Positions 10,701-63,843 are shown, numbered from the stretch's first letter. The stretch is DNA of 64,000 bases from Candidatus Saccharimonadia bacterium (GCA_036488585.1 DASXHH010000008.1:3069-67068); one strand, 5' to 3'. Numbers and translations are program-made. Notes: a model not told the origin generated them from the letters alone.

Positions 10701-13411
10701 CCAGTACCTCCCGTCGCGTGCAGCGCAATGCTAGTCGGCGAAGCATCCGTCACACCCGATCCAAAATACGCATCCTGAACGTAAAAACCGGATGAAGTCG
10801 AACCTCCCACCACCAGCTCATTACTAGCCCCAGCCACCGCACTTGTACCAATGGCAATACTACTAGCGGCCGCGTTGGCGTGTACACCTATTGCCACGCC
10901 ATATGCAGCCGCTGCCGTGCCATACCCCAAAGCGACCCCACCCGGTCCAGTAGTATTGGCACCGTATCCAACAGCCGTACTGTACTGAGTCGCTATTGCC
11001 GAATAGCCGAAAGCCGCGCCCTGCGCCGCCGCTACTGCACTGTCGCCAGCCGCCACGGCCTGAGTCCCCGATAGTGACGCGTTTAAGCCAAACGACTCAC
11101 TATTGGTATAGCCCTGCGTATTAGTAATGTATGCATTTGGCCCCTGCAAATTCAAACCGGTGTTATACCCCAGGTCTACCGCATTTGAACTTGAATCGGA
11201 CGTCAATGCCGATCCAGATGCCGTATAAGTGGCATAAATAGACGCTTCATAGCTCGTATCGTAGAAGGTGCCCGCCCCGGTCACCGAACCAAACGACGCC
11301 GGCATGCTACCGCCAAACGCCCGGGTATTAAATACGAACGGCGACCCCGCGCCAGATGGGTTCACCAACGCCTCATCGCTCAGTGTCGAGTCGTTAGTCC
11401 AAAACGCCAGCCAATAGGTAGTGTTAGCCGCCAGCGTCACGCCGGAAATCGCCATCGCGTTCCAGGAATTACCTGTCAGTCCTGTCTGTGCAGTAGAGGA
11501 GATTAGCGTTGACGGACAATCTGGGTTCGGCGAACAACCCGAGCTGGTATCGGCGTAAATACCCATCTGGCCAAGGGCTCCACCGGTAACTCCCGAGTGT
11601 ATGTACACAGACATACTCCCGATTGAACCTGCCCCTGTCGGAGAGGTAGTAAACTTTTGAGCCGTCAGCAAACCATAGTCCGAAGCACCAGCCGTCCCAA
11701 TCGTGCCGTTTCCTAGCGTCCCAGTCGGCGCCTTACCCAACGTCACCTTATCAGCATCTGTAGCCTTCAGTAGCTCGAAACCTCCCGAATCTTGCACATC
11801 GAGCACCGTTGAGTTGGCACTGGCGTTTTGCACGCTTAATGTCGCACTCGGCGAAGCGCCGTCAATGCCCACCCGACCGCTCGCCGTATCCACTACCAGA
11901 TCCGCGGTGGTACCAGTGCCGTTCTTCACCTGAAAAGCCGTGGATGAATCATGACCACTGGTCGGTTGCACCAACGCCGTACCGTTGATGGTGGTCGCGA
12001 TGTTACTGGTAGTGTTGCCAAGATTGATGGCGTTGGCGTTTAGATTGCCTACGGTCAATGCACCAGCACTGGCAGTATCCAGCCGTGGGCCATAAAACGC
12101 CGTGGTCGCAGTGACGGTGCCGGTAAAGTTTGCTGCCGCCGAAATAGTTTGGCCGTTTACTGTATCGGTAGTGCTTGAGCCGCCATTTTGCGTTACATTG
12201 CCACTCGAATCCACCGCAAATTTACTAACACTCCCCGACTGCAGATCAATCAGGTTGCCACTTGGGCTACTGGCCGTGTTATTGGCCACGATCAGCGCGT
12301 TGCCCGATCCCGGGTTGCCGCTGGCTGTCACGTACAGCGCGTCGCCGGTGTTGGTCTGGTTGTCGAGCGACAGCACCCCGCTCGCCACCGCCGAGCTGGT
12401 GTTCTTAAAACCATACAGATAGTTCGTAGCCGTCACCGCAAACTGCGAGGTATCAGCCGCATTCTTGGCCAAGTAACTACCTGCCACCTGGTAAGTCGCA
12501 CTACAAGTGCTGGCCACCGTGGTGCACACCGTGCCACCCGCATCCGGGAACGTAATCGTATTGTTATGCGTTGGCGTGGTGAACCCAACTGTCGTCGTGT
12601 TGATACCGTTAGTCGCCGTCAGTGTCGAGGTCGAGTTGCCCTGAATCACAAACGGCGTGGTCGTGCGGCCGATCTTGATATTGCTGGCCATACCGGTACC
12701 GATGTCGAGCTCTACCCCGGTAGTCGTATCCACCAGCGGCGCTTGCAGGCTAGTATTTGCGATCACATTACCGGTCACCGCCAGCGAACCAGTCTGCGCG
12801 CTCTCCGAACCCACTGTCTGTAGCTGCCCAAACGCACTCGAGTCCAACCCGTCCAGCAGATTCGAGTTCATCGCATACGGTGCGGCCGTAAACCGGATCA
12901 TCGGCAGCATCTCACCATCGCCGCCAGCAGCTCCAAACGTCACCGCAGTCGAGGTGCCACCCAGATTGATCGATAGCCAGATGGTGTTGTTGTTAAAAAT
13001 CGCCGGTAGCGACGTAATCGAGCCCAGGTCCACCTGGAACACGCCATCCGTTACCGTCACCCGGTTATCCGGCGAACCGCTGCCGTACACGTGATCCTCG
13101 GTCCATTGCAACGTGCCACCACATGGAGAACTCCCGCCACTCACGCACCCGTTACCACCGGTATAAAGCTTGAATTCTACGTTGTAGGTGCCGTTCGGTA
13201 CATTGGTCCCATCGGTGTTTACCAGCTTGCCCTGGAAGTTAATCTGGTTGTTAATCGCCGCCACGGCCGTACCCGGCTGCATCACTGCCACCAGTCCGCT
13301 CAGTAAGACCCCAAAAACACCAGTCACCGCTAGGGCCCTGGTTACTGCGATCCGGCGGTCTGTACCGGCTACCCTGCCTATGCGCCTGATCAGACGATAG
13401 AGGTCGCTCAC
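7739..13411 (-). CDS. Giant (1890 aa) secreted/anchored fibrous surface protein, Gly/Thr/Ser/Asn/Ala-rich, with a GGAGG-type Gly-rich tract and a Cys-containing C-terminal globular domain
   Basis: N-terminal signal anchor (ALAVTGVFGVLLSGLVAVMQPGTAVAA). Very low-complexity G/T/S/A/N composition. Internal …GAGGTTGAGGVASLTGGAGGGGNTAGG… tract around nt 9450-9900. C-terminal ~230 aa hold 8 or more Cys. All plus-strand ORFs inside are Pro/Arg-rich antisense artefacts. Confidence 0.7.
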   Translation of the reverse strand: MSDLYRLIRRIGRVAGTDRRIAVTRALAVTGVFGVLLSGLVAVMQPGTAVAAINNQINFQGKLVNTDGTNVPNGTYNVEFKLYTGGNGCVSGGSSPCGGTLQWTEDHVYGSGSPDNRVTVTDGVFQVDLGSITSLPAIFNNNTIWLSINLGGTSTAVTFGAAGGDGEMLPMIRFTAAPYAMNSNLLDGLDSSAFGQLQTVGSESAQTGSLAVTGNVIANTSLQAPLVDTTTGVELDIGTGMASNIKIGRTTTPFVIQGNSTSTLTATNGINTTTVGFTTPTHNNTITFPDAGGTVCTTVASTCSATYQVAGSYLAKNAADTSQFAVTATNYLYGFKNTSSAVASGVLSLDNQTNTGDALYVTASGNPGSGNALIVANNTASSPSGNLIDLQSGSVSKFAVDSSGNVTQNGGSSTTDTVNGQTISAAANFTGTVTATTAFYGPRLDTASAGALTVGNLNANAINLGNTTSNIATTINGTALVQPTSGHDSSTAFQVKNGTGTTADLVVDTASGRVGIDGASPSATLSVQNASANSTVLDVQDSGGFELLKATDADKVTLGKAPTGTLGNGTIGTAGASDYGLLTAQKFTTSPTGAGSIGSMSVYIHSGVTGGALGQMGIYADTSSGCSPNPDCPSTLISSTAQTGLTGNSWNAMAISGVTLAANTTYWLAFWTNDSTLSDEALVNPSGAGSPFVFNTRAFGGSMPASFGSVTGAGTFYDTSYEASIYATYTASGSALTSDSSSNAVDLGYNTGLNLQGPNAYITNTQGYTNSESFGLNASLSGTQAVAAGDSAVAAAQGAAFGYSAIATQYSTAVGYGANTTGPGGVALGYGTAAAAYGVAIGVHANAAASSIAIGTSAVAGASNELVVGGSTSSGFYVQDAYFGSGVTDASPTSIALHATGGTGSNIAGASFTIAGGIGTGTGNGGDINFKIAKPGSTGSSANSLSTAVTISGVTGNLIANNSVTVGSTGSSTLFKNNGATQNVVCAYTGASGTLSFTSPKSVNDCTTFTITDTGTTTLTSASIGTPTAGAGSIIYISNLVASTSAITVVGQSVPVGNIIMLIYDGSNWTTTFNSAGSVVKLQDAYNNSAGAQPSILETLTNKAVTVQSAISSGMSAGQELFGVRAAQTGDTLGASILTVTSYGLGINVGGTATNPAVQSGIDLQFGVGADRVLAVDDQTATNTAGNKLTVRSAAGNGTGAGGNLVLVAGAGGTTGAGGVASLTGGAGGGGNTAGGDSNVVGGAGAGTGNGGTVHVTGGAAGSSGAGGLVVIAATNGGSGAASSQGAGGSITLQGGNALANNNAGGSISLTAGTAHGTGSPGIVSLGSPVFNSNSESFTQSSSPQTFNVSQSDVDTYGTIVVNVTTGAFTGAIVSLPAPTNTTPGHIVLVSAASGSGSFTLSAFGMTSSVNMGAGNTSTLIWNGTNWSGTTTASSLQQVYDNTSTAPAGIITTSATKNLLFQAGVGYDNANLFQIGNSLAAPVLHVDTTNTATGANLADNSGLEGTGTTGWTATGSASLLRNISATNLASGTGSLDISLTGAGGADNDLSGTALSTSQLYNVSFNIKAGTSAPTNANLIVEYYRDATNLDATCTTPDNGTITTTGFFKWTCYFTTSATAKTTANHIRIRAADATTRHLYIDNLFVGAQSTSGSLNTGELQVGGPLSQGLTIFQLDSFANDPVAGAVNQNMLGSMYYSTTLGRIQCYEKDGWGSCGAAPDSNLILEPEYAGAVLNPGVGTDTHIGTMTANICSNAQGINATLCANSGEEFNYYQWTTSQVSAQTYSIYVKYQLPPTFGGFLNSTTLKMVGRVSSTTDADVAYSVFENSGAACGTSTNVTTSANTWQTVSYATDPNTCGFSPGDIIIFRVDMSSKNNAFSYAGRITFSMKGK

Positions 13412-13781: not shown

Positions 13782-13961
13782 ATGCCCGACACCAACAAAG
13801 AACCATCTAAGTCCAAGGACATGACTGTCCAAGAAGCCGGACGCCTGGGCGGACAACGCGAACGGGAGCTGGTTGAAGAAGGTCACCAGCGCGAGCACGC
13901 GGAAGGTCAGGACTTCGGCGAGAAGGTTGAACGCAAGTCCAAAGGCCGCCAGGAGGCCTAG
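13782..13961 (+). CDS. KGG-repeat general stress protein (YciG/GsiB-like), copy 1
   Basis: Strong SD aaggagg at 13768-13774 before the ATG at 13782. Protein MPDTNKEPSKSKDMTVQEAGRLGGQRE… has the same QEAG(R)xGG core as the two downstream copies. Confidence 0.6.
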   Translation: MPDTNKEPSKSKDMTVQEAGRLGGQRERELVEEGHQREHAEGQDFGEKVERKSKGRQEA

Positions 13962-13963
13962 TA

Positions 13964-14176
13964 ATGACCCGCGGAGTGGGAGGTAAAGGACCCGCCAATA
14001 TCATGAAGCACATGAAGGGCATCCACTTCCCCGCCAACAAGAACCAGGTGGTATCCCACGCCCGGCAGGGCGAAGGCCCGGATACTCAGGCCGTCGTGGC
14101 CGTGCTGGACCGCATCGAAGACCGCGAGTACGACAACCCCGCGGAGATACTAAAGCAAGTAGGGAGGATCGAATAA
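13964..14176 (+). CDS. DUF2795-family small protein
   Basis: MTRGVGGKGPANIMKHMKGIHFPANKNQVVSHA…DREYDNPAEILKQVG matches the DUF2795 pattern GGxGPANVxKYLKGIDFPAsKqdLi…dreYdsPadv as I recall it. Tightly packed with the KGG genes. Confidence 0.55.
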   Translation: MTRGVGGKGPANIMKHMKGIHFPANKNQVVSHARQGEGPDTQAVVAVLDRIEDREYDNPAEILKQVGRIE

Positions 14177-14364
14177 TGGCAAAGGACAAGACCAACAAGC
14201 AGATGACCGTACAGGAAGCCGGCCAGAGGGGTGGTGAAGCCACCAGTCAGAGCCACGGCCGCGAGTTTTACGAGGAGATCGGCCACAAGGGTGGCCAAAA
14301 GGGCGGGCAGCGCGTCCGCGAGCTGATCGAAGAGGGCAAAGAGGCCGAGAACGAGAAGAAATAA
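14176..14364 (+). CDS. KGG-repeat general stress protein, copy 2
   Basis: MAKDKTNKQMTVQEAGQRGGEATSQSHGREFYEEIGHKGGQKGGQRVRELIEEGKE shows stress-induced acidophilic (KGG) repeats. Near-identical to copy 3. Confidence 0.7.
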   Translation: MAKDKTNKQMTVQEAGQRGGEATSQSHGREFYEEIGHKGGQKGGQRVRELIEEGKEAENEKK

Positions 14365-14401
14365 CTATAGCTAACTTTCAACCACTAAGGAGGAAAAGAT
14401 T

Positions 14402-14608
14402 ATGGCAACTAGCAAGCGCAACCAGAACCAAGAGGGCACGATGAGCGTAAATGAGGCCGGCCGCCGCGGCGGTGAAGCCACCAGTCAAAGCCACGGCCGC
14501 GAATTTTACGAGGAGATTGGACAGAAGGGCGGCCAGCGCGTCCGCGAGCTGATCGAAGAGGGCAAAGAGGCCGAAGGCAACTCCGACAACCAGCGCTCTT
14601 CGCGCTAA
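14402..14608 (+). CDS. KGG-repeat general stress protein, copy 3
   Basis: SD aaggagg 8 nt upstream of the ATG. Protein …VNEAGRRGGEATSQSHGREFYEEIGQKGGQRVRELIEEGKEAEG. Confidence 0.7.
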   Translation: MATSKRNQNQEGTMSVNEAGRRGGEATSQSHGREFYEEIGQKGGQRVRELIEEGKEAEGNSDNQRSSR

Positions 14609-14650
14609 GCAGCCACGCCCAGCTGTACTAACACAAACACCCTACCCCTC

Positions 14651-14679
14651 GAGCGGCGCCGTAGCGCCGCTCTCTTTTT
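14651..14679 (+). terminator. Rho-independent terminator of the KGG/DUF2795 operon
   Basis: gagcggcgc(cgta)gcgccgctc hairpin at 14651-14672 followed by tctttttg. Confidence 0.6.
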
Positions 14680-14711
14680 GCTGTCCGCTTAACCTGTTAT
14701 GCTAAAAATCG

Positions 14712-17259: not shown

Positions 17260-18381
17260 CTAGAAATAACCTGCCCCGACCACTGTTAGCGTATCAGTAT
17301 AGTCGGTGGCGGCTGGTGTAACGGATGTAATCGCAACACGCTCCTTTAGTAGCAAGGCGTCTCCATTTGAAGTGCCGCCCGCACATTGCCCTATCTGTTG
17401 GAAGTTAGCCGTGGCCGCTCCAGAATACCGGTCTGTGCCCAGCGGCGAACCATCAACCGAAGCGGTATTGTACTCCGGCGCCACCCCCATTGTGCAGGTA
17501 CTGGTACCGGAAGCAGCGATCGTCACTGCGAGTCCATACTTGCTCGAAACATTCGGCTGCAAATGCGTTGGTGCTGCCGCATTCCACCCCACGGATCCTA
17601 TCAATCCGGTGGAACCTCCAATACTCGTCGACTGCAAGCCTTGGTTGGCCGACTTCGCCCACGCCACCCACCCCTGCTTGGCGTTGGTGTGCACCGTCAC
17701 GGAAATACCTTGCGATTCGTTCACCGCTGTGTAATCCAAGTTGCCGGTATGAGGTACGGGATCGGTAGTGCCTCCCAGATCAAATTGGAAGATTGGCGGT
17801 ACCACCGCCGATACGTTAATTTGGTCCTGGCCGGTATCGACTACTGCAAATGCGATGTTGGCGCTATCGAGGTTCGTCGCTACATTTCCCCCCAGACTAC
17901 CAGACACGGTCGACCCGGTAACCAGCACCGACGAGTCCGTTAAGTTGAAGTTAAAGCAATACAGAGTACCAACAGTCAGTGTCATGGCCGGAGATACCGC
18001 AAAAGTGGCTGTCTTCGCCGAGTTATCCCCATCACCGTTTTGCACGTTTGTGAGTGCTGACGCCCCGCTCGGCCAGTACAGGTTACCAGAACCTACGCTG
18101 TCAGGGTCGGCAGTCGTGTTAGCTACAAAGTTTCCAGTTCCGGTAGCGAGCGTAAACGATGTCGGGAACTTGATTACCACGCTCGATGTCGAACCCGCGC
18201 TCGCCGGCTTAAAGCACACCGTGCCCCCGGTGTTCGTGCTCTTAGCCATTCGGTCCAACCGAACTAGAGCTACTTGAAGTTGACCGGCCTGAGCCCCACC
18301 CACCCACACTAAAGGGGTCAAAATGGTAGCCACAACCAACCAAACTCGCAGTCCTACTGACCGGCGCTGCCGCATGCACAC
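17260..18381 (-). CDS. Secreted protein with WxL-like C-terminal region (GWVAW…ATDYTDTLTVVGAGYF), paralog A
   Basis: Signal peptide (LRVWLVVATILTPLVWVGGAQA). Clear paralog of 18473-19756 (LVRLDRMAKSTNTGGTVCFK vs LVRLNRLHKNSVTGGTVCVK; NAKQGWVAWAKSAN vs NAKNGWVIWSKSAN). The tail YTDTLTVV resembles the WxL second motif YTGTLTWTL as I recall it. Confidence 0.5.
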   Translation of the reverse strand: MCMRQRRSVGLRVWLVVATILTPLVWVGGAQAGQLQVALVRLDRMAKSTNTGGTVCFKPASAGSTSSVVIKFPTSFTLATGTGNFVANTTADPDSVGSGNLYWPSGASALTNVQNGDGDNSAKTATFAVSPAMTLTVGTLYCFNFNLTDSSVLVTGSTVSGSLGGNVATNLDSANIAFAVVDTGQDQINVSAVVPPIFQFDLGGTTDPVPHTGNLDYTAVNESQGISVTVHTNAKQGWVAWAKSANQGLQSTSIGGSTGLIGSVGWNAAAPTHLQPNVSSKYGLAVTIAASGTSTCTMGVAPEYNTASVDGSPLGTDRYSGAATANFQQIGQCAGGTSNGDALLLKERVAITSVTPAATDYTDTLTVVGAGYF

Positions 18382-22713: not shown

Positions 22714-23256
22714 CTACTCGCTCGAAAGCGTACCGTAACCCTCGATAATCATCACTTCTTGCACTGCCATATCAGCCGCCTGATCCACCCCCGCACAAGC
22801 ACTCGCAGGAGTTTCGTACACATAGTCATAACCGCCAAACGAGCCTTTCAGTATCCCCTGCCGTTCTGCCAACTTAGCGCCGGCACTACCCGTAGCTAGT
22901 CTCACCAACGCCCCTGCCGCGTTCTGTCCAGCAGAGCACTTTGAACCGTAATGTTCGAGCGCCGCCGTTGAAAGTCCTATGCTATCCGACCCTTCTACCG
23001 CGTACTCCAGCAAGGATGAGCCTGTTCCCAGTGGCAGCGATAGCTGTACACCCCAATCCTTAATGTCCACCCGTTGCATCGCGTTTCCCACCACCATCGC
23101 CGAAGCCTCGCGCGCATTCAGCTCCTCCGCCGCCACTTGATGAAATTGATCAAACACAGACGCTGCCACCGTAAACACCAGTGCCACCCCCAATGACAGC
23201 GCCAACGCCGAACCCAAACTCTGCACAGCCGCCAAAGATTTACCCGACGATTCCAT
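22714..23256 (-). CDS. Secreted/anchored hypothetical protein (180 aa), first gene of the minus-strand surface run
   Basis: Signal anchor (LGSALALSLGVALVFTVAASV). No recognisable domain. Confidence 0.4.
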   Translation of the reverse strand: MESSGKSLAAVQSLGSALALSLGVALVFTVAASVFDQFHQVAAEELNAREASAMVVGNAMQRVDIKDWGVQLSLPLGTGSSLLEYAVEGSDSIGLSTAALEHYGSKCSAGQNAAGALVRLATGSAGAKLAERQGILKGSFGGYDYVYETPASACAGVDQAADMAVQEVMIIEGYGTLSSE

Positions 23257-23374: not shown

Positions 23375-24439
23375 ATGGCCGACGAGCCCAAACCCAAAGA
23401 AAACGCCAAAAACGGCCAAACCGAGGCCCCATCTTCGGCCGCCCTGTCCCCCGCGCCCACCGTCGTGGCCGGCGACAGCACCAAACCGGCCGCCGACCCC
23501 AACAGCCGCATCCAGGCCGAGCCGCTGTCCGACGGCACCGTCCCTACCGTGCTCACGCCTGGCCAAACCCACCACTCGGTAGCCAAGAGCAAAGCTTCGC
23601 TCACCACCATCTACCGCAAGGCCGACATCATGACCACCCTACTCACTTTTGGCGGCGCCGTGGTGGCCGGAGCCATCATCATTGGCGGCTACATCTACTT
23701 CACCAAGAGTAGAGCCCCAACCCCAACGGCTACTCCCAAGGTCACCAACCTTAGCCAGTCCGACCTCTCCAAGCTCCAGACCTTCTTCCAGGGCAACTCC
23801 GCCGGCAGCTCAGCTGAGGTCCTCACCATTAGTTCATCCTCGCTTTTCAAAAACCGCGTCGCCGTCAGCTCCGACCTCAAAGTCACCGGCGGAGTCTCAG
23901 TCGACGGCACCACCAATCTTGGCGACCTCAATGTCGACAAAACCTCCACGCTTGGCGTAGTTAACACTCGTGGCCAACTCACCGTAGGCGGCCCGCTCAC
24001 CGTCCAATCCCCCGCTCTCTTCAACGCCGGCGCTTCGTATAAAGGCAGCATCTCGGCCACCGGCAACGGTTCCTTCGGCGGCTCACTTTCGGCCGGCAGC
24101 ATTAGTGTCGGCACCCTGTCCGTTACACAGCTCAACATCAACGGCCACTTCAGTCTTGGCGGTCAGGCCCCTTCGGCCTCAAACGGCCAAATCGGCGTCG
24201 AGAGCAACGACTCGGCCGGCTCTGTCACCGGCGTCACCGGCTCTGCCCCCGGAGACCTCGTTACCATCACCTTCCACACCGCCTTCCCGGTTGTGCCCAC
24301 CATTATCATCACGCCCGTCGGCGCCAACAGCGCCAAGGCCATGCCTTACCTTACAAACCTCACTGCCTCCAGTTTCACCATTGGGGCAGCCGGCACCGCC
24401 ACCGGTCCCTTCAGCTTCAATTATTGGGTCATCCAGTAG
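23375..24439 (+). CDS. Membrane-anchored beta-helix-repeat protein with a C-terminal H-type-lectin-like domain (paralog of 1244-2149)
   Basis: TM (TLLTFGGAVVAGAIIIGGYIYF). Repeats LKVTGGVSVDGTTNLGDLNVDKTSTLGVVNTRGQLTVGGPLTV. C-terminal VTITFHTAFPVVPTIIITPVG…LTASSFTIG…FSFNYWVIQ aligns by eye to the HPA H-type lectin core ([22 protein letters not shown]…SPTGFKAS…SISWISIE). Confidence 0.55.
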   Translation: MADEPKPKENAKNGQTEAPSSAALSPAPTVVAGDSTKPAADPNSRIQAEPLSDGTVPTVLTPGQTHHSVAKSKASLTTIYRKADIMTTLLTFGGAVVAGAIIIGGYIYFTKSRAPTPTATPKVTNLSQSDLSKLQTFFQGNSAGSSAEVLTISSSSLFKNRVAVSSDLKVTGGVSVDGTTNLGDLNVDKTSTLGVVNTRGQLTVGGPLTVQSPALFNAGASYKGSISATGNGSFGGSLSAGSISVGTLSVTQLNINGHFSLGGQAPSASNGQIGVESNDSAGSVTGVTGSAPGDLVTITFHTAFPVVPTIIITPVGANSAKAMPYLTNLTASSFTIGAAGTATGPFSFNYWVIQ

Positions 24440-37661: not shown

Positions 37662-38083
37662 AGCTTCTCCACCAGCAACGGTCCAAAAATAGCCACGCCT
37701 ATAATTACTGCCGCCACGGCCGCCATCAATACCCCGCCCGCCGACATGTCTTTGATCATTTTCACCTGGGCGTTCTCGTTTGGATCAATCAAGTCTAGCG
37801 TACGCTCAATCGCGGTGTTAAATATTTCCGCCAAGAACACCAATATCACTGCAAAGAACACCGCCGCCAATTCGGCGTCGCTCACCCCCAGCCACAACCC
37901 TATTAACAATGCCAGAAGCGCAAACATCAAGTGAAGTCGCGCATTATGCTCGTGCCGAAACACGTGCATTACTCCATGCCAGGCGTGCATCATGCCCTTA
38001 AGTAAGCCTGACTGCGCATAGGGATGGACTCGCTCAGTGTGGTCGTCAGCGTGAGAATTGGCGACTGTTTCAACCTGCTTCAT
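37649..38083 (-). CDS. dgkA: Diacylglycerol/undecaprenol kinase (DgkA family)
   Basis: Three TM helices and the …AEIFNTAIERTLDLI… catalytic motif (E-x-x-NTAIE). Confidence 0.7.
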   Translation of the reverse strand: MKQVETVANSHADDHTERVHPYAQSGLLKGMMHAWHGVMHVFRHEHNARLHLMFALLALLIGLWLGVSDAELAAVFFAVILVFLAEIFNTAIERTLDLIDPNENAQVKMIKDMSAGGVLMAAVAAVIIGVAIFGPLLVEKLWAR

Positions 38084-38526
38084 GATGCCAGCTTCTCCCG
38101 CACCAACCTCGACACCGCTGCGCCATCCGCCCGCGCACCCACTCGCTTCATTACCGCTCCAATCACAGCACCCATCTGTTTAGCGTCGGTGGCACCAATC
38201 TCGGCCATCGCCTCGTCAACCACCTTGCCTAGTTCGTCCTCGCCTATCACCTCGGGCAGGTATTCCGAAATCACCGTTAGCTCAGCCTCCTCGTGTTCCT
38301 CCAAATCGGTCCGACCAGCTCTCCGGTATGCGTCAATGGAATCACGCCTCTGCTTAGCCTCCCGCTGCAGCACCTTCAGTGCCTCGTCATCGCCGATCTC
38401 GTGCCCTACCTTGATTTGCTCGTTCTTGAGCGCACCCCGCAGCAACCGCAGCACTCCGGTGCGGTCGGCATCGCCAGCCTTCATGCTGGCCTTCATGTCC
38501 TCTGTCAACTGTTCGACAATTGTCAC
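38080..38526 (-). CDS. GatB/YqeY-domain protein
   Basis: MTIVEQLTEDMKASMKAGD…VLRLLRGALKN…EL…ISEYLPE is the YqeY pattern. Commonly co-transcribed with rpsU. Confidence 0.7.
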   Translation of the reverse strand: MTIVEQLTEDMKASMKAGDADRTGVLRLLRGALKNEQIKVGHEIGDDEALKVLQREAKQRRDSIDAYRRAGRTDLEEHEEAELTVISEYLPEVIGEDELGKVVDEAMAEIGATDAKQMGAVIGAVMKRVGARADGAAVSRLVREKLAS

Positions 38527-38641: not shown

Positions 38642-38851
38642 TTAACGACCCAGATACGCCTTAGCCTTGGCGGCCTTGCGAGCCGATTTGCGGATGGCGA
38701 TCTCACGCTGAGCCCGTTTGGTCAGCGGCTTCTCGAAGTATTTGCCCCGGCGGGCAATACCCAGTACCCCCGACTGCTGCACTTTCTTATTGAAGCGACG
38801 GATCAGGTTTTCCAACGACTCTTTGTCGTCTTTGCGGGTTACTTGAAGCAT
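38642..38851 (-). CDS. rpsU: 30S ribosomal protein S21 (bS21)
   Basis: MLQVTRKDDKESLENLIRRFNKKVQQSGVL…RKSARKAAKAKA is a canonical S21 sequence. Confidence 0.8.
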   Translation of the reverse strand: MLQVTRKDDKESLENLIRRFNKKVQQSGVLGIARRGKYFEKPLTKRAQREIAIRKSARKAAKAKAYLGR

Positions 38852-38935
38852 ACGATATCACCTCCTTTCCTAAGGCATTGGAACATTAATTAAAGCCTAG
38901 CTAGATTACCAGATATGTCGCCGTTAAGCAAGCTA

Positions 38936-53505: not shown

Positions 53506-55593
53506 CTAGCGGTTCCAGAACCAGTAAAAGAATCCGCCATGCCGACCTTCTCGACCGCGCATAGCTCTACGCCGTATCGGGTCAATTCCTCTTTGAGCAT
53601 ATGGTCCGTTATCGCCCTCTACCACACCAGTCGTGGTACCAAAACCCGTTCCTGCAGCGATCCCCGCGTAATCCCTAGTCGCTCTCAGAGCCCGCCGGAT
53701 ACCCGTACCTTCCTGTGCCTTCCGGATGGCCTCATCTCTGCCTCGCACTTCTCCAACCTCTTTGCTAACCTCGCGTGGCGGTATCGGGAAATTCCCCAGC
53801 CGGCTCAATCGAATCGGATCATGGGTTGTCATAATCGTCTGGCTAACAAGCTCGCCGTTCCTCCGGTTATAGCGCTCAAACACAATCACATTATCGTTAC
53901 CTGGAATCCGGTAATAAGCCTCCCGCACCCGGCCATGATTCATCTCCACAAATGGCCGGCCGTCCTGTGTTATCCGCCTAGTCACAGGATCACGCACCTC
54001 CTGTATACCAAGTGCCTGTAGACGTGCCGATGCCCTCTCCATTGCCCGCGGGTCGTAAGTACCATCCTCGCTGTAACCTTGCAAAGTTTCGCCCACCCAG
54101 TGCACGCGATCCTGTGCCCGCGTCAAAATGTCCGGCGCCATGTTCATGGCCTCAGCCCTAATCTGCCCGATCTCCGCCGTCCTAGTCTCCTGCCGCGTCA
54201 CTTCGGCCTTCACCGCCGCTTCCTGGGCCTCGCGCAGCTGCTTTTTGATCGTCATATCTGGCTCGGCATCAATCATCCGCTGGTAGCGCTCACGGACCTC
54301 CCGTTGACCCTGTGCCTCACGATCAGCCGCGTACGCTTCTTCCCTCGCTACATCCGGATCAACCTCTCGTCGCTGACCGTTGGACCCAAAATCACTCAGC
54401 TTCGGTTCACTCTGCTCCCATAAATCGTGCGCCAATGTCCGAAGGGCAGGTTCACGACCTTGCCAGCCTAGATGCGCCGCATCCAGCGCTCTCTGAGCTC
54501 GTGACAAATTCATTCCCGACTCTCGCTCTCGCTGGGTCATTATTTGCGTCGCCCGGTCACGGCCATACTGCCGCTCCAGATCAAGTCGCTCGTTCTCACG
54601 CAATGCATCTGCATGAATCTGCGAGTCTACCCCTTCCTGATCACGCAACAACCGCCCGCTCGCATCAACCTGAGCTCGCACCAGCTTCCGCTTACCAGAA
54701 GATGTCTTCTCGTAATGATCACGCTGCATCTTGGGATCAAAATTCTCAACCAGCGTTCCCGCCTTAAATTCCACTCGGTTCTCGCCGAGGCGGGCAGTCT
54801 GCTCACGGCCGCGTTCCTGGTCTTCTTTTTGCTTGTCCGCCGCCTCAATCCTACGCCTGGCGTCCTCAACCATACGTTTCTGATGCTGCTCGTACAGAAC
54901 TTTAGCCTTGGATTGTTGCTCTCTCGCCTGCTTGTCTAGCTCTCCCAGATGTTGACCAGCCTCTTTCGGAAATTCCTTATAGGCATCCTGCTCTGGGCCG
55001 ACTGCGAGGTTGGTGGTGGCAGCCTGGTCAAACGCCAGCTTAATGGCCTCCTCCCGCCGGTTTTTAGGTCGCCAAGCATACTCCGCCGGCGTCCCCGGAG
55101 TCGCTGGCGCAGTGCCCTTCGCCGGCTTGCCCGGTATCGCCGCCTTAGTTACAACTAGCGTAACATCGCCCTGGAGGTAGGCCTGCTCGAACCACGTCTT
55201 CATCGCATCAACCTTGTCGGAGCCAGGTGTCAGTTTAGTGAAATTATCATTTAGTGCATCTTCGGTATCTTGAAGTGTCACAGCAAACTTACGATCCTTG
55301 AGTTCCCTCAAAACCTCTTGGACTCCTGCATCTGGTATAGTCGCTTCTAGCTCCGGCTGGTCAGTGAAGGTGTCATCAACAGTGCGAGCCTCGCCACCAA
55401 CTTTCTTGGGCCGCAGTAATCCGTCTTTCAGAGCTTCCTGGAGCTTATGCTCTAGCTCAGCCGAATCCATCGCTCGGATGTCTGCTGGTAGGTAATCCTT
55501 TAGTATTTCACCTAGCTTTGTTGGATCACGCAACTCGTCGACCGAATACCTCGGCGCACCTTCTATTTCTGTTGCTTCCGGCGATGTTGCCAC
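53506..55593 (-). CDS. Large (695 aa) hyper-charged (E/R/D/K/Q-rich) cytoplasmic hypothetical protein; GTG start
   Basis: No TM or signal. Long coiled-coil-prone charged tracts. C-terminal ~150 aa more globular (…NVIVFERYNRRNGELV…GFFYWFWNR). The start codon reads GTG (plus cac at 55591-55593). Confidence 0.5.
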   Translation of the reverse strand: MATSPEATEIEGAPRYSVDELRDPTKLGEILKDYLPADIRAMDSAELEHKLQEALKDGLLRPKKVGGEARTVDDTFTDQPELEATIPDAGVQEVLRELKDRKFAVTLQDTEDALNDNFTKLTPGSDKVDAMKTWFEQAYLQGDVTLVVTKAAIPGKPAKGTAPATPGTPAEYAWRPKNRREEAIKLAFDQAATTNLAVGPEQDAYKEFPKEAGQHLGELDKQAREQQSKAKVLYEQHQKRMVEDARRRIEAADKQKEDQERGREQTARLGENRVEFKAGTLVENFDPKMQRDHYEKTSSGKRKLVRAQVDASGRLLRDQEGVDSQIHADALRENERLDLERQYGRDRATQIMTQRERESGMNLSRAQRALDAAHLGWQGREPALRTLAHDLWEQSEPKLSDFGSNGQRREVDPDVAREEAYAADREAQGQREVRERYQRMIDAEPDMTIKKQLREAQEAAVKAEVTRQETRTAEIGQIRAEAMNMAPDILTRAQDRVHWVGETLQGYSEDGTYDPRAMERASARLQALGIQEVRDPVTRRITQDGRPFVEMNHGRVREAYYRIPGNDNVIVFERYNRRNGELVSQTIMTTHDPIRLSRLGNFPIPPREVSKEVGEVRGRDEAIRKAQEGTGIRRALRATRDYAGIAAGTGFGTTTGVVEGDNGPYAQRGIDPIRRRAMRGREGRHGGFFYWFWNR

Positions 55594-55619
55594 TACTCAA
55601 TTACCCCTAATTTAAAGCC

Positions 55620-55639
55620 ATTGTAACATAACAGATATG
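55620..55639 (-). promoter_or_regulatory. Predicted promoter/operator of 53506-55593 containing the shared motif CATATCTGTTATGTTA and an extended -10 (TGT-TACAAT)
   Basis: Minus strand reads …CCATATCTGTTATGTTACAATGG… 27-46 nt upstream of the GTG start. The same 16-mer recurs upstream of 55659-57305. Confidence 0.3.
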
Positions 55640-55658
55640 GAGCAACTTGATCCGCAAG

Positions 55659-57305
55659 CTACCATCTCGGTCGTCGACCCTCCTTGGCCCGCCTCTCATT
55701 TTCCAGAATTTTTTCCATTTTTCGTCGCTCATTTTGCATTAGGTCTCGTTGCCGCCCTCTCATAATTTCCCGCTTCTGCTCGTCGGGCTCCTTGTCGATT
55801 TCTTTTTGTTCTTGCCTCCGCACCTTCTCCACTGCCCAGGCCACTGGATCACGCCTGTACGCCTGCGCCATCTGTTTCTCGAGATCGGGATTGTACTCCC
55901 CTTGAACTTGTTCAGAAATATCCCCTGCTTGCGGCGGCTCTTGTTCCGCCGTAATCGGTGGTTCTACTTGTCGGATCTTAGGTTTGGGGTAATACCTGTC
56001 GAATAATCTCCGAATCAATCGGCCGCGACCTCCGGCGGCCTCCCTTATCAGACCATCCGGATCCCTAAACTCGTCTCTCCCTGCCTCATCAACCATCAGC
56101 CCCTCAGCATAATCATCACTGTCGTAGGCATTCTCCACCTCCCAGGCCTGAACCCTGGGATCACCCGAATTCCCTTTTGGTCTCGGTCGCAACTGCGACT
56201 TCCCACTAACCAGTGGCACCAAAGTTCTCTCCCATCCCTCCGCGCTCGCCTGAGTAGGTTCACTGGCAGCCGGCTCCGAACTTGGCTCAGCGGCATCCGT
56301 GGCAATCTTCTTCCTGGGTGCGGTCCGAGTACGATCATGATTGTGCTCCCGGCGGGCTTCATTTAATAATGCCCAAGCCTTCTCCCTCAGTTCCCGATTC
56401 TGAGTAGTTGAAACCAAGCCCCGATCACCATATTCGAACAATCCCTCATAGATAAAGTCATCTAGAATCTGTTTCCAATCCTCACGCGTAGCAGAATCGC
56501 TCTCCTTCAAATCGCTTATCCGCTCCTCAAACGCACCGACCAAACCCTGCAATTCCTCAAGCTTTCCCCCTGAATGCTCAACTTGCCCAGACGCACGTAC
56601 CGCTCGTTCTGCTGTCCTTAGCTCTTGTAAACGCTCTTCAGCCCTACCAAGATCTTCGGTACCTTCACCGAATAAGTCCGCAACCCGGCTCCTCTGCTGT
56701 TCATCGCGCACAAGGATCGTTCTCTCACCCGTATCTTTGTCGCGCCTATACAGACCTTGGGACCGCGCATCAATGATCAAACCCAAAGCTTGTTCTGCTG
56801 TTAGGTCCGGGTGGTCAATCAAATCGGAATACCATTTCAGGAGCTGATCTATTTCTTCACGATCTCCAGGCCGCAAACGAGCCACCATGCGATCAGGATC
56901 AAATTTACTCTTGTATAACCGACGACCTTTCTCGTCCCGCGCTGGTCTCTCCTGTGTCTGGGCTGCAGCTTCTGCCGTGTGGGATTCGGGGTCTCCAGCT
57001 CCGGCTATCGCCGCTCTCGCCTGCTCTGCCTGCTCCGCTTGATTAGCAGCGAGCCTCCGACGTGCCTCTTCAGGCGTAATTATCTCATCACGAGATACCA
57101 ACCCAAGTGCTTGCACCAATCCCATTATCCGAGCATTATCCTCTTCCCGCTCTGCATCCTCTTGTGCGTCGGTTTCTCCCGCCGCGTTCGCCGTGGCCAT
57201 TGCCCGAAGCTTGTCTTCTAAATCGTCAGGAATATTTAGCTGGTGCGTTAAGTGCTCCTGGTCCCCACTATCATTCACTTCTCCAGGATTACGGTTCGAC
57301 ACCAC
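55659..57305 (-). CDS. Large (548 aa) hyper-charged cytoplasmic hypothetical protein; GTG start
   Basis: Composition and style match 53506-55593 (E/R/D-rich, coiled-coil-prone). Start codon GTG at 57303-57305, with SD TGGAGTGG adjacent. Confidence 0.5.
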   Translation of the reverse strand: MVSNRNPGEVNDSGDQEHLTHQLNIPDDLEDKLRAMATANAAGETDAQEDAEREEDNARIMGLVQALGLVSRDEIITPEEARRRLAANQAEQAEQARAAIAGAGDPESHTAEAAAQTQERPARDEKGRRLYKSKFDPDRMVARLRPGDREEIDQLLKWYSDLIDHPDLTAEQALGLIIDARSQGLYRRDKDTGERTILVRDEQQRSRVADLFGEGTEDLGRAEERLQELRTAERAVRASGQVEHSGGKLEELQGLVGAFEERISDLKESDSATREDWKQILDDFIYEGLFEYGDRGLVSTTQNRELREKAWALLNEARREHNHDRTRTAPRKKIATDAAEPSSEPAASEPTQASAEGWERTLVPLVSGKSQLRPRPKGNSGDPRVQAWEVENAYDSDDYAEGLMVDEAGRDEFRDPDGLIREAAGGRGRLIRRLFDRYYPKPKIRQVEPPITAEQEPPQAGDISEQVQGEYNPDLEKQMAQAYRRDPVAWAVEKVRRQEQKEIDKEPDEQKREIMRGRQRDLMQNERRKMEKILENERRAKEGRRPRW

Positions 57306-57326
57306 ACCACTCCAATAATTATTTGG

Positions 57327-57346
57327 AGTATAACATAACAGATATG
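57327..57346 (-). promoter_or_regulatory. Predicted promoter/operator of 55659-57305 containing the shared motif CATATCTGTTATGTTA and -10 TATACT
   Basis: Minus strand reads …CATATCTGTTATGTTATACTCC… 22-41 nt upstream of the start. Confidence 0.3.
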
Positions 57347-57353
57347 AGCAGAC

Positions 57354-57683
57354 TTATATTTTCTTGAGTAGCCGGTCAATTTCGGCTGCGTACTCGCCGC
57401 CGGTGTCACGCTTAAAGTTCAGTCGCGGCACAAACTTGGTGGTCATATTAGCAGCCACCGCCTCCTGCAGCTCACGACGCTCGCGCTCAATATGAGCCCA
57501 CAACGCGTCTTGAGCCGCACTGTCGCCCAGCATCCCAATCCACACCACCGCCGACCGCAAGTCCGGCGCCGCATCCACCCGCGTCACCGTCACCGCCGCC
57601 GCATCACGATCCAGCAGCTGTACCAGCGCCGTCGCCACCACCTGTTGGATCAGGCTCTCAACCTTTGCAACCCGTTGTGTCAT
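57354..57683 (-). CDS. rbfA: Ribosome-binding factor A
   Basis: 109-aa KH-like protein, [24 protein letters not shown]…. Conserved position immediately downstream of infB (1-nt overlap). Confidence 0.8.
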   Translation of the reverse strand: MTQRVAKVESLIQQVVATALVQLLDRDAAAVTVTRVDAAPDLRSAVVWIGMLGDSAAQDALWAHIERERRELQEAVAANMTTKFVPRLNFKRDTGGEYAAEIDRLLKKI

Positions 57684-59455
57684 TACAGTCTCCGGGCTTT
57701 GGTCTCAACGGTGTAAAATTCTATGTTATCGCCCAGCTCAATCGCAGTCCCTGTGGCCACGTTCATGCCGCAGGTCTCACCTTCAAAGGCTTCCTTGGCC
57801 ACCTGCTTGTCCTTCTGCAGGCTGTCGAGCGTGCCCTCGCCAATCACTTCGCCACCCCGTTTCATGCGCAGCTTCAGTTTCGGCTCAATCCGGCCCATTG
57901 TCACAGTGCCACCACAAACCACATGCGTCTTGGTGATCTTAAACACACCCTTAATCTCGAGCTCACCCACCACTGTCTCAATCACTTCAGGTTCCAACAT
58001 CTGGCTCAAAGCATCGCGCAGGTCATCTGTCAGCTCGTAAATCACCTTATACAATCGCACATGTACGCCCTCGCGGTTGGCCAGAGCTTTCAGGTTCGAG
58101 TTTAGACTCACGTTAAAACCAATCATGAGCGCACCTGCCGTCTTGGCAAACGCAATATCCGACTCCGCAATGTCACCCACCGCCGAGCTCACCACCTTTA
58201 CCGCCACCTCATCGTTGCGCAACTGTTCGCAAGCCTCAAGCAGCGACTCCAGCGAGCCCTGAGTGTCAGCCTTAAGTACCACGTTTAGTTCCTTCACGTT
58301 GCCGGCTGAAATTGCCGCTGACAACTGCGAAGCATCAATTTTCTTAATACCCAGCGACTTGGCCTGCTCTCGGCGCACCACCGCCGCAGCTGCATCACGT
58401 GCCTCTTTCTCGCTGCTTACCGCCCTAAATAGGTCGCCAAACGACGGCACGGCCTTGAAGCCCATCACCACTGCCGGCATACCCGGATCGGCCTTCTGGA
58501 TTCGCTTGCCGCGGAAGTCGCCCAGGCTGCGCACCTTGGCATAGGTAGAACCCGCCACCAAGTAGTCGCCCACCCCGAGTTGGCCGTTTTGCATTAGCAG
58601 TGTCGCCACCGGTCCCTTGCCCGGATCGAGATGGCTCTCAATGATCTGCCCCTCGGCTGGACCATCCGGACGTGCGCGCAGGTCCTCAATGTCGGCCACC
58701 AGCAGTACTACGTCCACCAACTTATCAATATTCTCGCCACTCCGTGCCGACACGTCCACCATCGGCACGTCGCCGCCCCATTCCTCGGGCACCAGCTGCA
58801 GCTCCGAGAGCTCCTGGCGCACGCGGTTTGGATCGGCCCCTTCCTTATCAATCTTGTTCACCGCCACCACAATCTGCACACCCGCCTCCTGTGCGTGCCG
58901 AATGGCTTCTTTGGTTTGCGGCTTCACGCCGTCGTCGGCGGCCACTACGATAATCGCCACGTCGGTCATTCGGGCACCATGCTGCCGCAGTGCCGAAAAC
59001 GCCTCGTGACCCGGCGTGTCGATAAACGTAATCCAGCGGTCGCCACGCTTAATCTGGTAGGCGCCGATGTGCTGGGTAATACCGCCAGCCTCCTTCTCGG
59101 CCACGTGGCTGGAACGAATCGCATCCAAGAGCGAGGTCTTGCCGTGGTCTACGTGGCCCATCACCGCCACAATCGGCGGCCGCGATGCACCTTCACCTTC
59201 GGCCAGCTTAGTCTTGGCAGCCGGCCGCTCGGGCTCCTCCCGTTTCTCTTCCTCGATCTCAAAACCTAACTCCGAACCAATAATCGCAGCGGTATCATAA
59301 TCGATCCGCTCATTAATAGTGGCCATCACGCCATTTTTCATCAGTTCACCAATCACCCGCGTTACCGGCAGGCCCAATTTCTCGGCAAACTCGCCCACCC
59401 CGATTACCTCGGGGATGGCAATTAACTGTGCTTGTTTTAACGTCTTTTCGGCCAT
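57683..59455 (-). CDS. infB: Translation initiation factor IF-2
   Basis: G-domain motifs ([17 protein letters not shown]; DTPGHEAF; NKID), then the beta-barrel and C-terminal domains. Short N-terminal region, 590 aa. Confidence 0.9.
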
Positions 59456-63426: not shown

Positions 63427-63642
63427 TTAAGCAGCCAAATCCATGTCGGCATTGGTCTTGGTGCGGCGCGAAGCCTTACCACCCTTGCGACCAGCCTCAA
63501 CGGCCAGCTCGCGGTTCATTGCGAAGCCACCGCCACGAGAAATCTTACCGCCTTTGCGGCCAATCTGCTCGTAGAAATTGAGACCGTAGCGCTGCTTGTT
63601 AGTTGCGGCGGCCTTCCGGCCACCAGCCTGGGTTCCTGCCAT
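63427..63642 (-). CDS. KGG-repeat stress protein (YciG-like), a fourth family member remote from the tandem array
   Basis: MAGTQAGGRKAAATNKQRYGLNFYEQIGRKGGKISRGGGFAMNRELAVEAGRKGGKAS… carries the (E/Q)AGRKGG repeats. SD GAGGAG 7 nt upstream of ATG 63642. The ORF track extends further 5' to 63714. Confidence 0.6.
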   Translation of the reverse strand: MAGTQAGGRKAAATNKQRYGLNFYEQIGRKGGKISRGGGFAMNRELAVEAGRKGGKASRRTKTNADMDLAA

Positions 63643-63843
63643 AGCTACACTCCTCGTTAAGTTATCCAGATTGTATTCAAATCCGGGTCGTGTCAGCTTT
63701 AGCCTTTCTGCCAAAAAGCTTGTATTAGGGACAAAAACCGTTGGCAGAACTGCTAAACTACTGCTTACGGACGTCAGATTATCACAAATGGCTTATGCTG
63801 TCAATAGTTATTATGCTTCGCGTTGTCTGTTAGAGTTGTTTGC

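Follow-up and report, generated by a model that had tools for sequence, protein, structure and literature searches.

The window analysed here, a stretch of 64,000 nucleotides from a Candidatus Saccharimonadia MAG (uncultured Saccharibacteria, TM7), carries two adjacent genes for large, charged proteins. Both are present as open reading frames and in the JGI and NCBI gene calls:

53506..55593, minus strand: gene for a charged protein of 695 aa, GTG start
55659..57305, minus strand: gene for an acidic charged protein of 548 aa, GTG start

JGI gene calls on the contig place fmt/def/priA on one side of the pair and rbfA/infB/S1 on the other. This agrees with the sequence-only reading of this DNA, which had described GTG-initiated frames of 695 and 548 aa between fmt and rbfA-infB. 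NCBI lists the products as HEY2003954.1 and HEY2003955.1, each a ‘hypothetical protein’. In the gene calls, no regulator gene lies in or adjoins the slot between fmt and rbfA, and no secretion genes adjoin it. No terminator was found between the two genes.

The residues D, E, K and R make up 34% of the 695-aa protein and 38% of the 548-aa protein, the highest charge among the large proteins of the window, and GRAVY values are -0.95 and -1.12, respectively. The 548-aa protein has a pI of 5.0. Neither protein contains a TM-like segment (maximum 19-residue Kyte-Doolittle means of 0.63 and 0.95), and no signal-like N-terminus or known secretion motif was found in either. Composition and the Kyte-Doolittle scan uphold the earlier description of the proteins as hyper-charged and devoid of TM segments or signals. 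Cysteines are absent from the charged slot proteins. The statement that no family could be recognised likewise stands, as Pfam, NCBIfam, PHROGs, PADLOC, PDB sequences, and Foldseek against PDB and BFVD gave no family match for either protein. Paralogy of the two was considered and rejected, BLASTP returning just a 64-residue low-complexity match (E 0.005).

A word-index protein search yielded almost no homologues. The relatives of the 695-aa protein emerged from an exhaustive HMMER scan, which found 25 cluster representatives at E<=1e-3. The homologue check that the sequence-only reading had proposed places this protein, by sequence similarity, in a small uncharacterised family whose named members all come from Saccharibacteria. 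The protein aligns over its full length to P0125-P0131, and the profile of a 21-sequence alignment (A2) gives the window protein 593 bits. The JGI label ‘amidotransferase C subunit’ on one family member, P0126, has no Pfam support and was set aside.

The 695-aa protein consists of an N-terminal domain (about aa 12-265), a charged, helical or disordered middle and a C-terminal helix and beta-sheet domain (about aa 413-645). The middle is variable, with an indel of about 100 aa between orthologues. Family members share an N-terminal module (PKYS..DL.DP ... GL..R ... DD.F.G), a C-terminal domain (PFLE..GG...GPKV.ESYFRVPGN.N.VVVERR.RR.GEL.SQT..TTE.PIR...PPRE) and a conserved tail, RRGGFxYW (RRGGFxYWxxGxR), which in the window protein is the basic-aromatic terminus ...GRHGGFFYWFWNR. 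An AF2 model has a mean pLDDT of 78.4, with confident end domains, disorder at 270-323 and 395-411, and a tail that forms a short helix at pLDDT <50; a model from two sequences only (mean pLDDT 46.9) was uninformative. No sequence or fold match was found for this protein in Pfam, PDB or Foldseek searches. For the 548-aa protein, the search returned its own cluster (at least 90% identity) alone, and the profiles of the 695-aa family and of its N-terminal module gave zero matches. Judged by its sequence, it is an orphan. At L001, the sequence upstream of the 695-aa orthologue shows the C-terminal end of a homologue of the 548-aa protein.

The slot between rbfA and fmt is conserved in Saccharimonadia, and its occupants are fast-evolving. 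In all eight relatives examined (8/8), it holds one to two large charged proteins without a Pfam match, ranging from 456 to 1543 aa. Where fmt is 69% identical, the slot protein has an identity of 29% or cannot be aligned at all. Slot proteins of L172, L174, L177, and L178 have no detectable relationship to the window pair. RGG/RG-rich C-terminal tails occur in L172_1306 and L177_1543, and L175_758 ends in ...RRRTGWRRLLFGA, similar to the 695-aa family tail. A search of the literature for promoters of Saccharibacteria, or for hypothetical proteins of high abundance, found nothing pertinent.

Each gene of the pair is preceded by the same 16-mer, within which lie two overlapping candidate promoter boxes:

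55624-55639, minus strand: 16-mer CATATCTGTTATGTTA, predicted promoter of the 695-aa gene (exact match; conserved at the orthologous locus L001)
55633-55625 and 55628-55620, minus strand: overlapping TG-extended -10 boxes of the 695-aa gene, TGT-TATGTT and TGT-TACAAT
57331-57346, minus strand: 16-mer CATATCTGTTATGTTA, predicted promoter of the 548-aa gene (exact match; near-identical in L175, L176, and L179)
57340-57332 and 57335-57327, minus strand: overlapping TG-extended -10 boxes of the 548-aa gene, TGT-TATGTT and TGT-TATACT

The identical 16-mers before both GTG starts, and their overlap with an extended -10 (TGT-TACAAT and TGT-TATACT), had been noticed in the sequence-only reading and are confirmed. 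In the whole window, CATATCTGTTATGTTA has two matches, and still two when up to 3 mismatches are allowed; TGNTATGNTANNNT is also found solely at these sites (0.24 expected). The 3' end of the motif lies 30 nt from the start codon of the 695-aa gene and 25 nt from that of the 548-aa gene, and the 16-mer is followed by CAAT in the former and TACT in the latter. The boxes stand 20-35 nt before the GTG on the gene strand, as TG-extended -10 elements should, and each promoter has two of them, offset by 5 bp, in an overlapping tandem. A consensus scan found no TTGACA-like -35 at 16-18 nt spacing at either site, and the bases upstream of the motif vary among 8 aligned instances, two features that together indicate independence from a -35. 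TGnTAnnnT boxes also stand before many other genes of the window.

The two copies are alike over about 27 nt, apart from two 1-nt indels, and no further. We judge the pair non-random because the copies occupy an in-register -10 position at adjacent same-strand genes, are similar over this length, and are conserved in orthologous or syntenic loci. At L001, where the protein is 54% identical, ATATCTGTTATGTTATACT-GGCTTTAAATTAGGGG is kept while the flanks have diverged. The rbfA-proximal slot gene carries TATATCTGTTATGCTATACT in L179 (protein 29% identical), CATACCTGTTATGGTATACT in L175, and TATACCTGTTGTGATATACT in L176. The tandem -10 arrangement recurs in L001, L025, L134, L175, and L179, and CATATC, just upstream and within the spacer, is conserved. 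A short CATA-N5-TATG dyad is seen in several copies. The motif was not found at the slot genes of L172, L174, L177, and L178, nor at the second gene of L176, and is therefore not obligatory for slot genes.

Parts of the motif occur at a ribosomal protein gene, and the bases that follow it at the 695-aa gene are shared as well:

38642-38851, minus strand: rpsU (S21) gene
38890..38917, minus strand: rpsU (S21)/yqeY promoter region, CATATCTG-GTAATCTAGCTA-GGCTTTAA, both flanking blocks as in the promoter of the 695-aa gene
55604..55619, minus strand: GGCTTTAAATTAGGGG, predicted transcript start (from the upstream -10 box) and 5'UTR of the 695-aa gene, with a Shine-Dalgarno-like AGGGG

The left half of the 16-mer, CATATCTG, also stands at the head of the rpsU promoter. 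It has six copies in the window against 1.1 expected, three of which stand immediately ahead of a TG-n-TAnnnT box that itself precedes a gene. The bipartite CATATCTG-N12-GGCTTTAA has two exact matches, at rpsU and the 695-aa gene, against 0.01 expected, and GGCTTTAA is missing from the promoter of the 548-aa gene. The L001 orthologue has GGCTTTAAATTAGGGG unchanged, and the rpsU promoter region shares the first 8 nt of it.

On other contigs, the full motif lies 12-15 nt upstream of one tRNA-Ala and one tmRNA gene. These cases came from exact-motif searches of very large collections, and one or a few such matches could be due to chance, given the common TTATGnTAnAnT core of the lineage. Motif scans of wider collections were informative only in part: an exact 16-mer scan of GTDB genomes gave 119 loci, nearly all chance matches in unrelated low-GC organisms, and only L025, from Saccharibacteria, was of use. 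A 19-mer scan of metagenome contigs (a set that excludes the window's contig) gave 49 loci, mostly chance, with only the taxonomically unassigned L134 (tmRNA) being useful. In 154 kb of related DNA there are 7 motif sites, which beyond the slot-gene copies are just the tRNA-Ala and tmRNA promoters.

The reading that we favour is of a tandem TG-extended -10 promoter, belonging to a translation-linked class of strong expression, that drives abundant scaffold or tether proteins; taken as a whole, it has a somewhat better than even chance of being right. The 16-mer would form the core of a -35-independent promoter composed of TCTG-T-TATGTT and TATG-T-TAYAMT, offset by 5 bp, with the second box carrying a TRTG-type extension. 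The TGTTA-TGTTA direct repeat would be the footprint of this tandem arrangement. Since both genes use this predicted promoter, each is probably transcribed on its own, although they lie downstream of infB-rbfA. The left half held in common with the S21 promoter, together with GGCTTTAA in the case of the 695-aa gene, suggests that the pair belongs to a strongly expressed, translation-linked class. The analysis shows the anatomy of the motif, its conservation, its sharing with rpsU, the synteny, and the family with its domain layout; how active and strong the promoter is, where transcription starts, and how abundant the proteins are and what they do are inferred.

Comparable promoters are known from the genome-reduced Mollicutes, where the core consists of a -10 with a TRTG extension and a -35 is rare, and where rpmH and tsf have overlapping tandem promoters (PMC5138195). 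The resemblance lies in the -10 and TG/TRTG as the main determinant, the lack of a usable -35, cores that overlap within a few bp, and the use at genes related to translation, rpsU in this case and rpmH and tsf in the Mollicutes. In contrast to the Mollicute promoters, conservation between species here takes in about six more spacer bases (CATATC) and, in two promoters, the first (predicted) transcribed bases; the organism is a Patescibacterium, not a Mollicute, and its promoters are predicted from sequence. Depending on its sequence, the spacer can make a promoter hundreds of times stronger or weaker (PMC12641261).

The identical 16-mers had been taken to imply dedicated co-regulation of the two genes, and this part of the sequence-only reading is not supported. 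The left half and GGCTTTAA are shared by the rpsU promoter, the full motif precedes tRNA-Ala and tmRNA genes on other contigs, and the motif is thus not confined to co-regulated genes as a private operator would be. These occurrences point instead to a promoter type common to translation and stable-RNA genes, and we do not think that the two genes form a private regulon. A broader version, in which the conserved sequence is a transcription-factor operator with a small regulon made up of the charged-protein gene pair, rpsU, and possibly genes for stable RNAs, is unlikely. A factor bound to CATATCTG, and at some targets also to GGCTTTAA, would flank the -10 and gate access of RNA polymerase; from the sequence, CATATC and GGCTTTAA could equally be two halves of such a site across the -10. 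The conservation of the CATATC spacer exceeds what a generic extended -10 needs, the bipartite arrangement is common to two promoters, the dyad recurs in several copies, and the motif is rare (7 sites/154 kb). However, the dyad is not retained in L176, L134, and L001, the promoter of the 548-aa gene lacks GGCTTTAA, and no regulator gene accompanies the slot. Furthermore, two good TG-extended -10 boxes suffice to explain why every base of the motif is constrained.

It is quite improbable, and disfavoured by the data, that the identical 16-mers arose by chance or as a side effect of the promoter consensus in this lineage, leaving just ordinary promoters. Exact 16-mer direct repeats are not in themselves exceptional in the window (7 pairs, against 0.56 per shuffle), and comparison with related loci shows about 12 of the 20 bases (TTATGnTAnAnT) to be generic. 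Yet the non-generic (C/T)ATA(T/C)CTG is retained at the syntenic promoters of L001, L175, L176, and L179 despite proteins that are 29-54% identical or unalignable, CATATCTG is enriched, and the copies are alike well beyond 16 nt. The idea that the motif is a piece of a dispersed repeat or mobile element, or that the frames are not real genes, has nothing in its favour beyond the repeat itself and can be regarded as refuted. Similarity stops after about 27 nt with two window copies at <=3 mismatches, motif positions are syntenic in relatives, and the frames encode proteins with conserved homologues and with domains modelled at high confidence. No transposase or phage match was accepted; a single transposase match, to a low-complexity tail, fell below the cut-off. 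A longer dispersed repeat and a match to a known family, the two outcomes named beforehand as counting against the sequence-only reading, were both looked for and neither occurred.

As for the proteins, the most likely role, suggested by composition, context, and the conserved tail, is that of abundant non-enzymatic scaffolds or tethers co-expressed with the translation machinery. Binding to partners, be they membrane, RNA or ribosomes, would fall to the end domains and the tail, with the charged middle serving as a spacer. E/R/K-rich single alpha-helix (SAH) spacer proteins offer one parallel, in that a helix at aa 216-270 of the 695-aa protein is 47% charged with dense i/i+3-4 opposite-charge pairs, and the length of the middle differs between orthologues, as in a spacer. 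Unlike in those proteins, only this one helix has SAH-like properties, the other helices are 19-23% hydrophobic, much of the middle is predicted to be disordered, and there is no motor or known cargo domain.

MinD and FtsA have C-terminal membrane-targeting tails, and the 695-aa family's conserved short C-terminal peptide, with basic residues around hydrophobic or aromatic ones, may be similar in kind. The family differs in lacking an ATPase or actin-like domain, and its tail is aromatic-dominated and of low AF2 confidence. The window's two proteins are like SMC/condensin and coiled-coil cytoskeletal proteins in being large, highly charged, and rich in long helices, but they have no Walker ATPase head, hinge, heptad periodicity, Pfam or fold match. 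The long helices show no 3.5-residue periodicity, with one segment resembling an E/R/K single helix. The earlier characterisation of the proteins as coiled-coil-prone and condensin-like, cytoskeletal or chaperone-like is not supported. The C-terminal region of RNase E exemplifies Arg/Gly-rich disordered RNA-binding scaffolds. The slot proteins resemble such scaffolds in being charged, low-complexity, fast-evolving, and located among translation genes, and some relatives' slot proteins have RGG/RG tails; in contrast, they lack a catalytic domain, and the window pair has no RGG repeats.

Saccharibacteria live attached to host bacteria, and the proteins might be fast-evolving host-interaction or surface effectors of the epibiont, whose strong promoter serves the demand for export cargo. 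Their extreme divergence relative to their neighbours, and a slot that varies widely in size and content, would fit this. We nevertheless hold it to be very unlikely, as the proteins have no signal peptide, TM segment, known secretion motif or cysteines, and their genes are surrounded by translation genes, in a neighbourhood that is conserved in relatives, with no adjacent secretion genes. More speculatively, the slot may hold lineage-specific, fast-diversifying, very abundant charged proteins that form a new structural system of ultra-small epibiotic cells, a prospect that we regard as distinctly unlikely. The 695-aa family would be its core member, expressed from the promoter class of S21 and stable RNAs and having an end-domain fold without solved relatives. 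It would act either as a membrane-anchored spacer or tether, via the basic-aromatic tail, or as a ribosome- or RNA-organising scaffold.

The gene pair is a case of well-documented hypothetical proteins with an ordinary promoter type, and not of a new mechanism. To our knowledge, promoters of Patescibacteria/CPR are essentially unmapped. The motif offers a concrete, conserved, and testable CPR example that is -35-less, tandem, TG-extended, and shared with rpsU, and it could become a strong native promoter for emerging Saccharibacteria genetic tools. The pair also marks a conserved slot in which evolution is far faster than in the adjoining housekeeping genes, and one of its occupants defines a family that has domains modelled with confidence and no known relatives. 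If abundant, these proteins would count among the unexplained core features of ultra-small epibiotic cells.

Two further observations concern the surroundings of the motif. At L158/L125, it stands ahead of a tatD-like ORF. At the 548-aa gene, the promoter runs into an inverted repeat:

57309..57329, minus strand: inverted repeat ACTCCAA-ATAATTA-TTGGAGT (RNAfold -8.4 kcal/mol)

One end of this repeat takes in the 3' half of the -10 hexamer, and the other takes in the gene's Shine-Dalgarno GGAG. Based on folds of single sequences and arms read by eye, equivalent hairpins with differing arm sequences occur at L001, L176, L177, L178, and L179.

The two large, charged, GTG-start genes sharing an upstream 16-mer are real: both open reading frames match the JGI gene calls for this contig, and the motif copies are exact. 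The pair is flanked by fmt/def/priA at one end and rbfA/infB/S1 at the other. NCBI enters both products as hypothetical, from a Candidatus Saccharimonadia MAG, and the adjoining fmt matches an NCBI protein of Candidatus Saccharimonadia at 100% identity.

Features of the gene pair and of the rpsU region
53506-55593, minus strand: 695-aa open reading frame (HEY2003954.1), GTG start
55624-55639, minus strand: exact 16-mer CATATCTGTTATGTTA, its 3' end 30 nt before the 695-aa start codon, running into TACAAT
55659-57305, minus strand: 548-aa open reading frame (HEY2003955.1), GTG start
57309-57329, minus strand: inverted repeat, starting inside the -10 hexamer (..ACT) and ending at the Shine-Dalgarno region (..AGT)
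57331-57346, minus strand: exact 16-mer CATATCTGTTATGTTA, its 3' end 25 nt before the 548-aa start codon, running into TATACT
38080-38526, minus strand: yqeY-like gene
38642-38851, minus strand: rpsU (S21), followed by yqeY
38642-38917, minus strand: rpsU with its promoter region

The two proteins have the highest D+E+K+R content among the large proteins of the window (34% for the 695-aa and 38% for the 548-aa protein), with GRAVY values of -0.95 and -1.12. Neither contains cysteine, and no TM-like stretch was found in either. The AT skew of the plus strand is strongly negative across 54001-58000 (-0.24 and -0.11), so the mRNA strand of the pair is A-rich, as expected from E/K/Q/R/D-rich coding.

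An exact 16-mer repeat is weak evidence by itself, because the window holds seven such pairs, against 0.56 in shuffles. The likeness of the two copies, however, stretches over about 27 nt, interrupted by two single-base indels. This extension, the -10 register at adjacent genes on the same strand and, above all, conservation together indicate that the pair of copies is non-random. No further copies occur in the window at up to three mismatches. The 16-mer spans -26 to -11 of a predicted promoter whose -10 reads TAYAMT, preceded by TATG-T, which corresponds to the TRTG type of extended -10 (PMC12641261). A second complete box, TG-T-TATGTT, lies 5 bp upstream within the motif, and the direct repeat TGTTA-TGTTA is thus accounted for as a pair of overlapping TG-extended -10 cores. 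Only the two sites of the gene pair match the pattern TGNTATGNTANNNT in the window (0.24 expected). A scan found no -35 hexamer at either promoter, and the bases further upstream vary between aligned instances. Single TGnTAnnnT boxes stand ahead of many other window genes, so the right half of the motif appears to be the ordinary promoter core of the lineage. A palindromic word, GCTTATGC/GCATAAGC (or AAGCTTATG), also recurs in or beside putative promoters in many intergenic regions, for example upstream of 2460-7070, 17260-18381, 22714-23256, 23375-24439 and 63427-63714; slot-gene promoters in relatives read gCTTATGnTAnAnT. The word may belong to the promoter consensus of the lineage.

The motif is conserved in relatives. 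At locus L001, ATATCTGTTATGTTATACT-GGCTTTAAATTAGGGG is retained at 33 of 35 bases, between unalignable flanks, ahead of the orthologue of the 695-aa gene, whose product is 54% identical. At L179, TATATCTGTTATGCTATACT precedes the sole gene of the fmt-rbfA slot, directly after rbfA; its product, P0127, is 29% identical. The counterparts are CATACCTGTTATGGTATACT at L175 and, ahead of the rbfA-proximal gene, TATACCTGTTGTGATATACT at L176. Searching 154 kb of related DNA with up to three substitutions allowed turned up only these sites (L001, L179, L175, L176) and two stable-RNA promoters. The more distant L172, L174, L177 and L178, and the second L176 gene, have only a generic CTTRTGnTAnAnT core.

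The motif is not confined to the two genes. CATATCTG occurs six times in the window (1.1 expected), and three copies directly precede a TG-n-TAnnnT box upstream of a gene, namely the 695-aa gene, the 548-aa gene and rpsU. The longest-ORF gene map had missed rpsU and the yqeY-like gene because a spurious 179-aa plus-strand ORF covers both. CATATCTG-N12-GGCTTTAA has two exact matches in the window, at the rpsU and 695-aa gene promoters, against 0.01 expected; if the upstream box served as -10, the G of GGCTTTAA would be the first base of both transcripts. Elsewhere, a Saccharibacteria MAG (L025) has CATATCTGTTATGTTACAAT 15 nt ahead of a tRNA-Ala gene, and a metagenome contig without taxon (L134) has tATATCTGTTATGTTATAAT 12 nt ahead of a tmRNA gene. 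Both show the sequence in the place expected for a plain promoter of a stable-RNA gene; since they come from exact-pattern scans of huge sequence collections, they could in part reflect a common promoter core that coincides by chance. ATATCTGTTATGTTATAAT, about 23 nt ahead of a tatD-like ORF (MLTDTHCHLDL...) on a 54-55% GC metagenome contig without taxon (L158 704-722, minus strand; also L125), may be another such instance, or chance.

The best-supported reading takes the motif for a strong tandem promoter that is independent of a -35. Each gene of the pair would then be transcribed on its own, though downstream of infB-rbfA, from a promoter type that would also serve rpsU in the same genome. 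Mollicutes offer a documented precedent: in these genome-reduced bacteria the core promoter is a -10 with TRTG extension, -35 elements are rare, and overlapping tandem promoters are known at rpmH and tsf (PMC5138195). In the main rival reading, a transcription factor would recognise CATATC...GGCTTTAA across the -10. The sequence-only reading had proposed a shared promoter/operator with dedicated co-regulation; the shared promoter stands, but no sign of a dedicated regulon was seen.

Inverted repeats comparable to that at 57309-57329 occur at L001 (about 110-135), before both slot genes of L176, and before the slot gene of L177, L178 and L179. Their arms differ between slot genes (ACTCCAA/TTGGAGT, ACTCCGGTTA/TAACCGGAGT, ACTGCCC/GGGCAGT, CGCTC/GAGCG), and a T-run follows at L177 and at the gene for the 737-aa protein of L176. 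The 5' arm would lie ahead of the predicted transcription start, so that only RNA reading through from rbfA could fold into the hairpin. This points to a terminator or a block to translation, acting on transcripts from upstream and overlapping the promoter of the next gene.

Neither protein matched a family in Pfam, NCBIfam, PHROGs, PADLOC or PDB sequences, and direct comparison rejected paralogy between them. In a word-index protein search, the 548-aa protein had no relatives beyond its own cluster; the sole exception is a homologous C-terminal end that precedes the 695-aa orthologue on L001. For the 695-aa protein, an exhaustive HMMER scan that also used its single close homologue as query matched 25 cluster representatives at E<=1e-3; those bearing a name are entered as hypothetical and come from Candidatus Saccharibacteria. 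Several are on contigs equal in length to contigs with fmt homologues, and we take these to be identical. Conservation in a 21-sequence alignment falls into three parts: an N-terminal module, a C-terminal domain (PFLE..GG...GPKV.ESYFRVPGN.N.VVVERR.RR.GEL.SQT..TTE.PIR...PPRE) and a basic-aromatic tail (RRGGF.YW..G.R). The middle is unconserved, differing by about 100 residues between orthologues. The AF2 model from this alignment (mean pLDDT 78.4) is confident at residues 12-265 and 413-645 and disordered at 270-323 and 395-411; Foldseek against PDB and BFVD gave nothing better than E 0.08. E/R/K single-helix character is confined to helix 216-270 and no heptad signal was seen in the helices, so the earlier description as coiled-coil-prone is not established. 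The cytoskeletal, condensin-like and chaperone-like analogies likewise find no support among the databases searched.

The slot was surveyed in eight relatives whose fmt is 64-71% identical (seven loci with DNA, one as gene calls only). In each of them it holds either one large charged protein or two, all lacking Pfam domains.

Slot proteins of the relatives
L172 and L173 (same gene arrangement): 1306 and 1184 aa
L174: 918 aa
L175: 758 aa
L176: 727 and 737 aa
L177: 1543 aa
L178: 1088 aa
L179: 661 aa
P0024 contig (gene calls only): 456 aa

The 737-aa protein of L176 and the 661-aa protein of L179 are family members, and the L175 protein has the N-terminal module; the remaining slot proteins could not be aligned. 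The position is conserved, but its content turns over quickly; among the occupants, the 695-aa protein defines an uncharacterised family that is restricted to the lineage. Slot proteins of L172 (14912-18466 and 10925-14845) and L177 (10966-15597) are Ala/Gly/Pro/Arg-rich and, unlike the window pair, bear His-Gly repeats (GGHGGGGHGGGHH) or RGG/RG-rich C-terminal tails, a composition that hints at nucleic-acid or metal binding.

As to function, the preferred reading, given low confidence, makes both products abundant scaffolds or tethers without enzymatic activity, in which the ends would be folded, a charged stretch would act as spacer and the tail would bind partners. A role as host-interaction effectors is a lesser rival to this scaffold or tether reading.

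Elsewhere in the window, two very large ORFs may encode surface or cell-envelope proteins.

Very large ORFs
2460-7070, minus strand: 1536 aa, low charge, pI 5.5
7739-13411, minus strand: 1890 aa, low charge, pI 4.5

At 13800-14700, a small gene encoding a KGG-repeat (general-stress-type) protein is present in tandem paralogous copies, with direct repeats of 57-96 nt at 84-95% identity, 226-238 nt apart.
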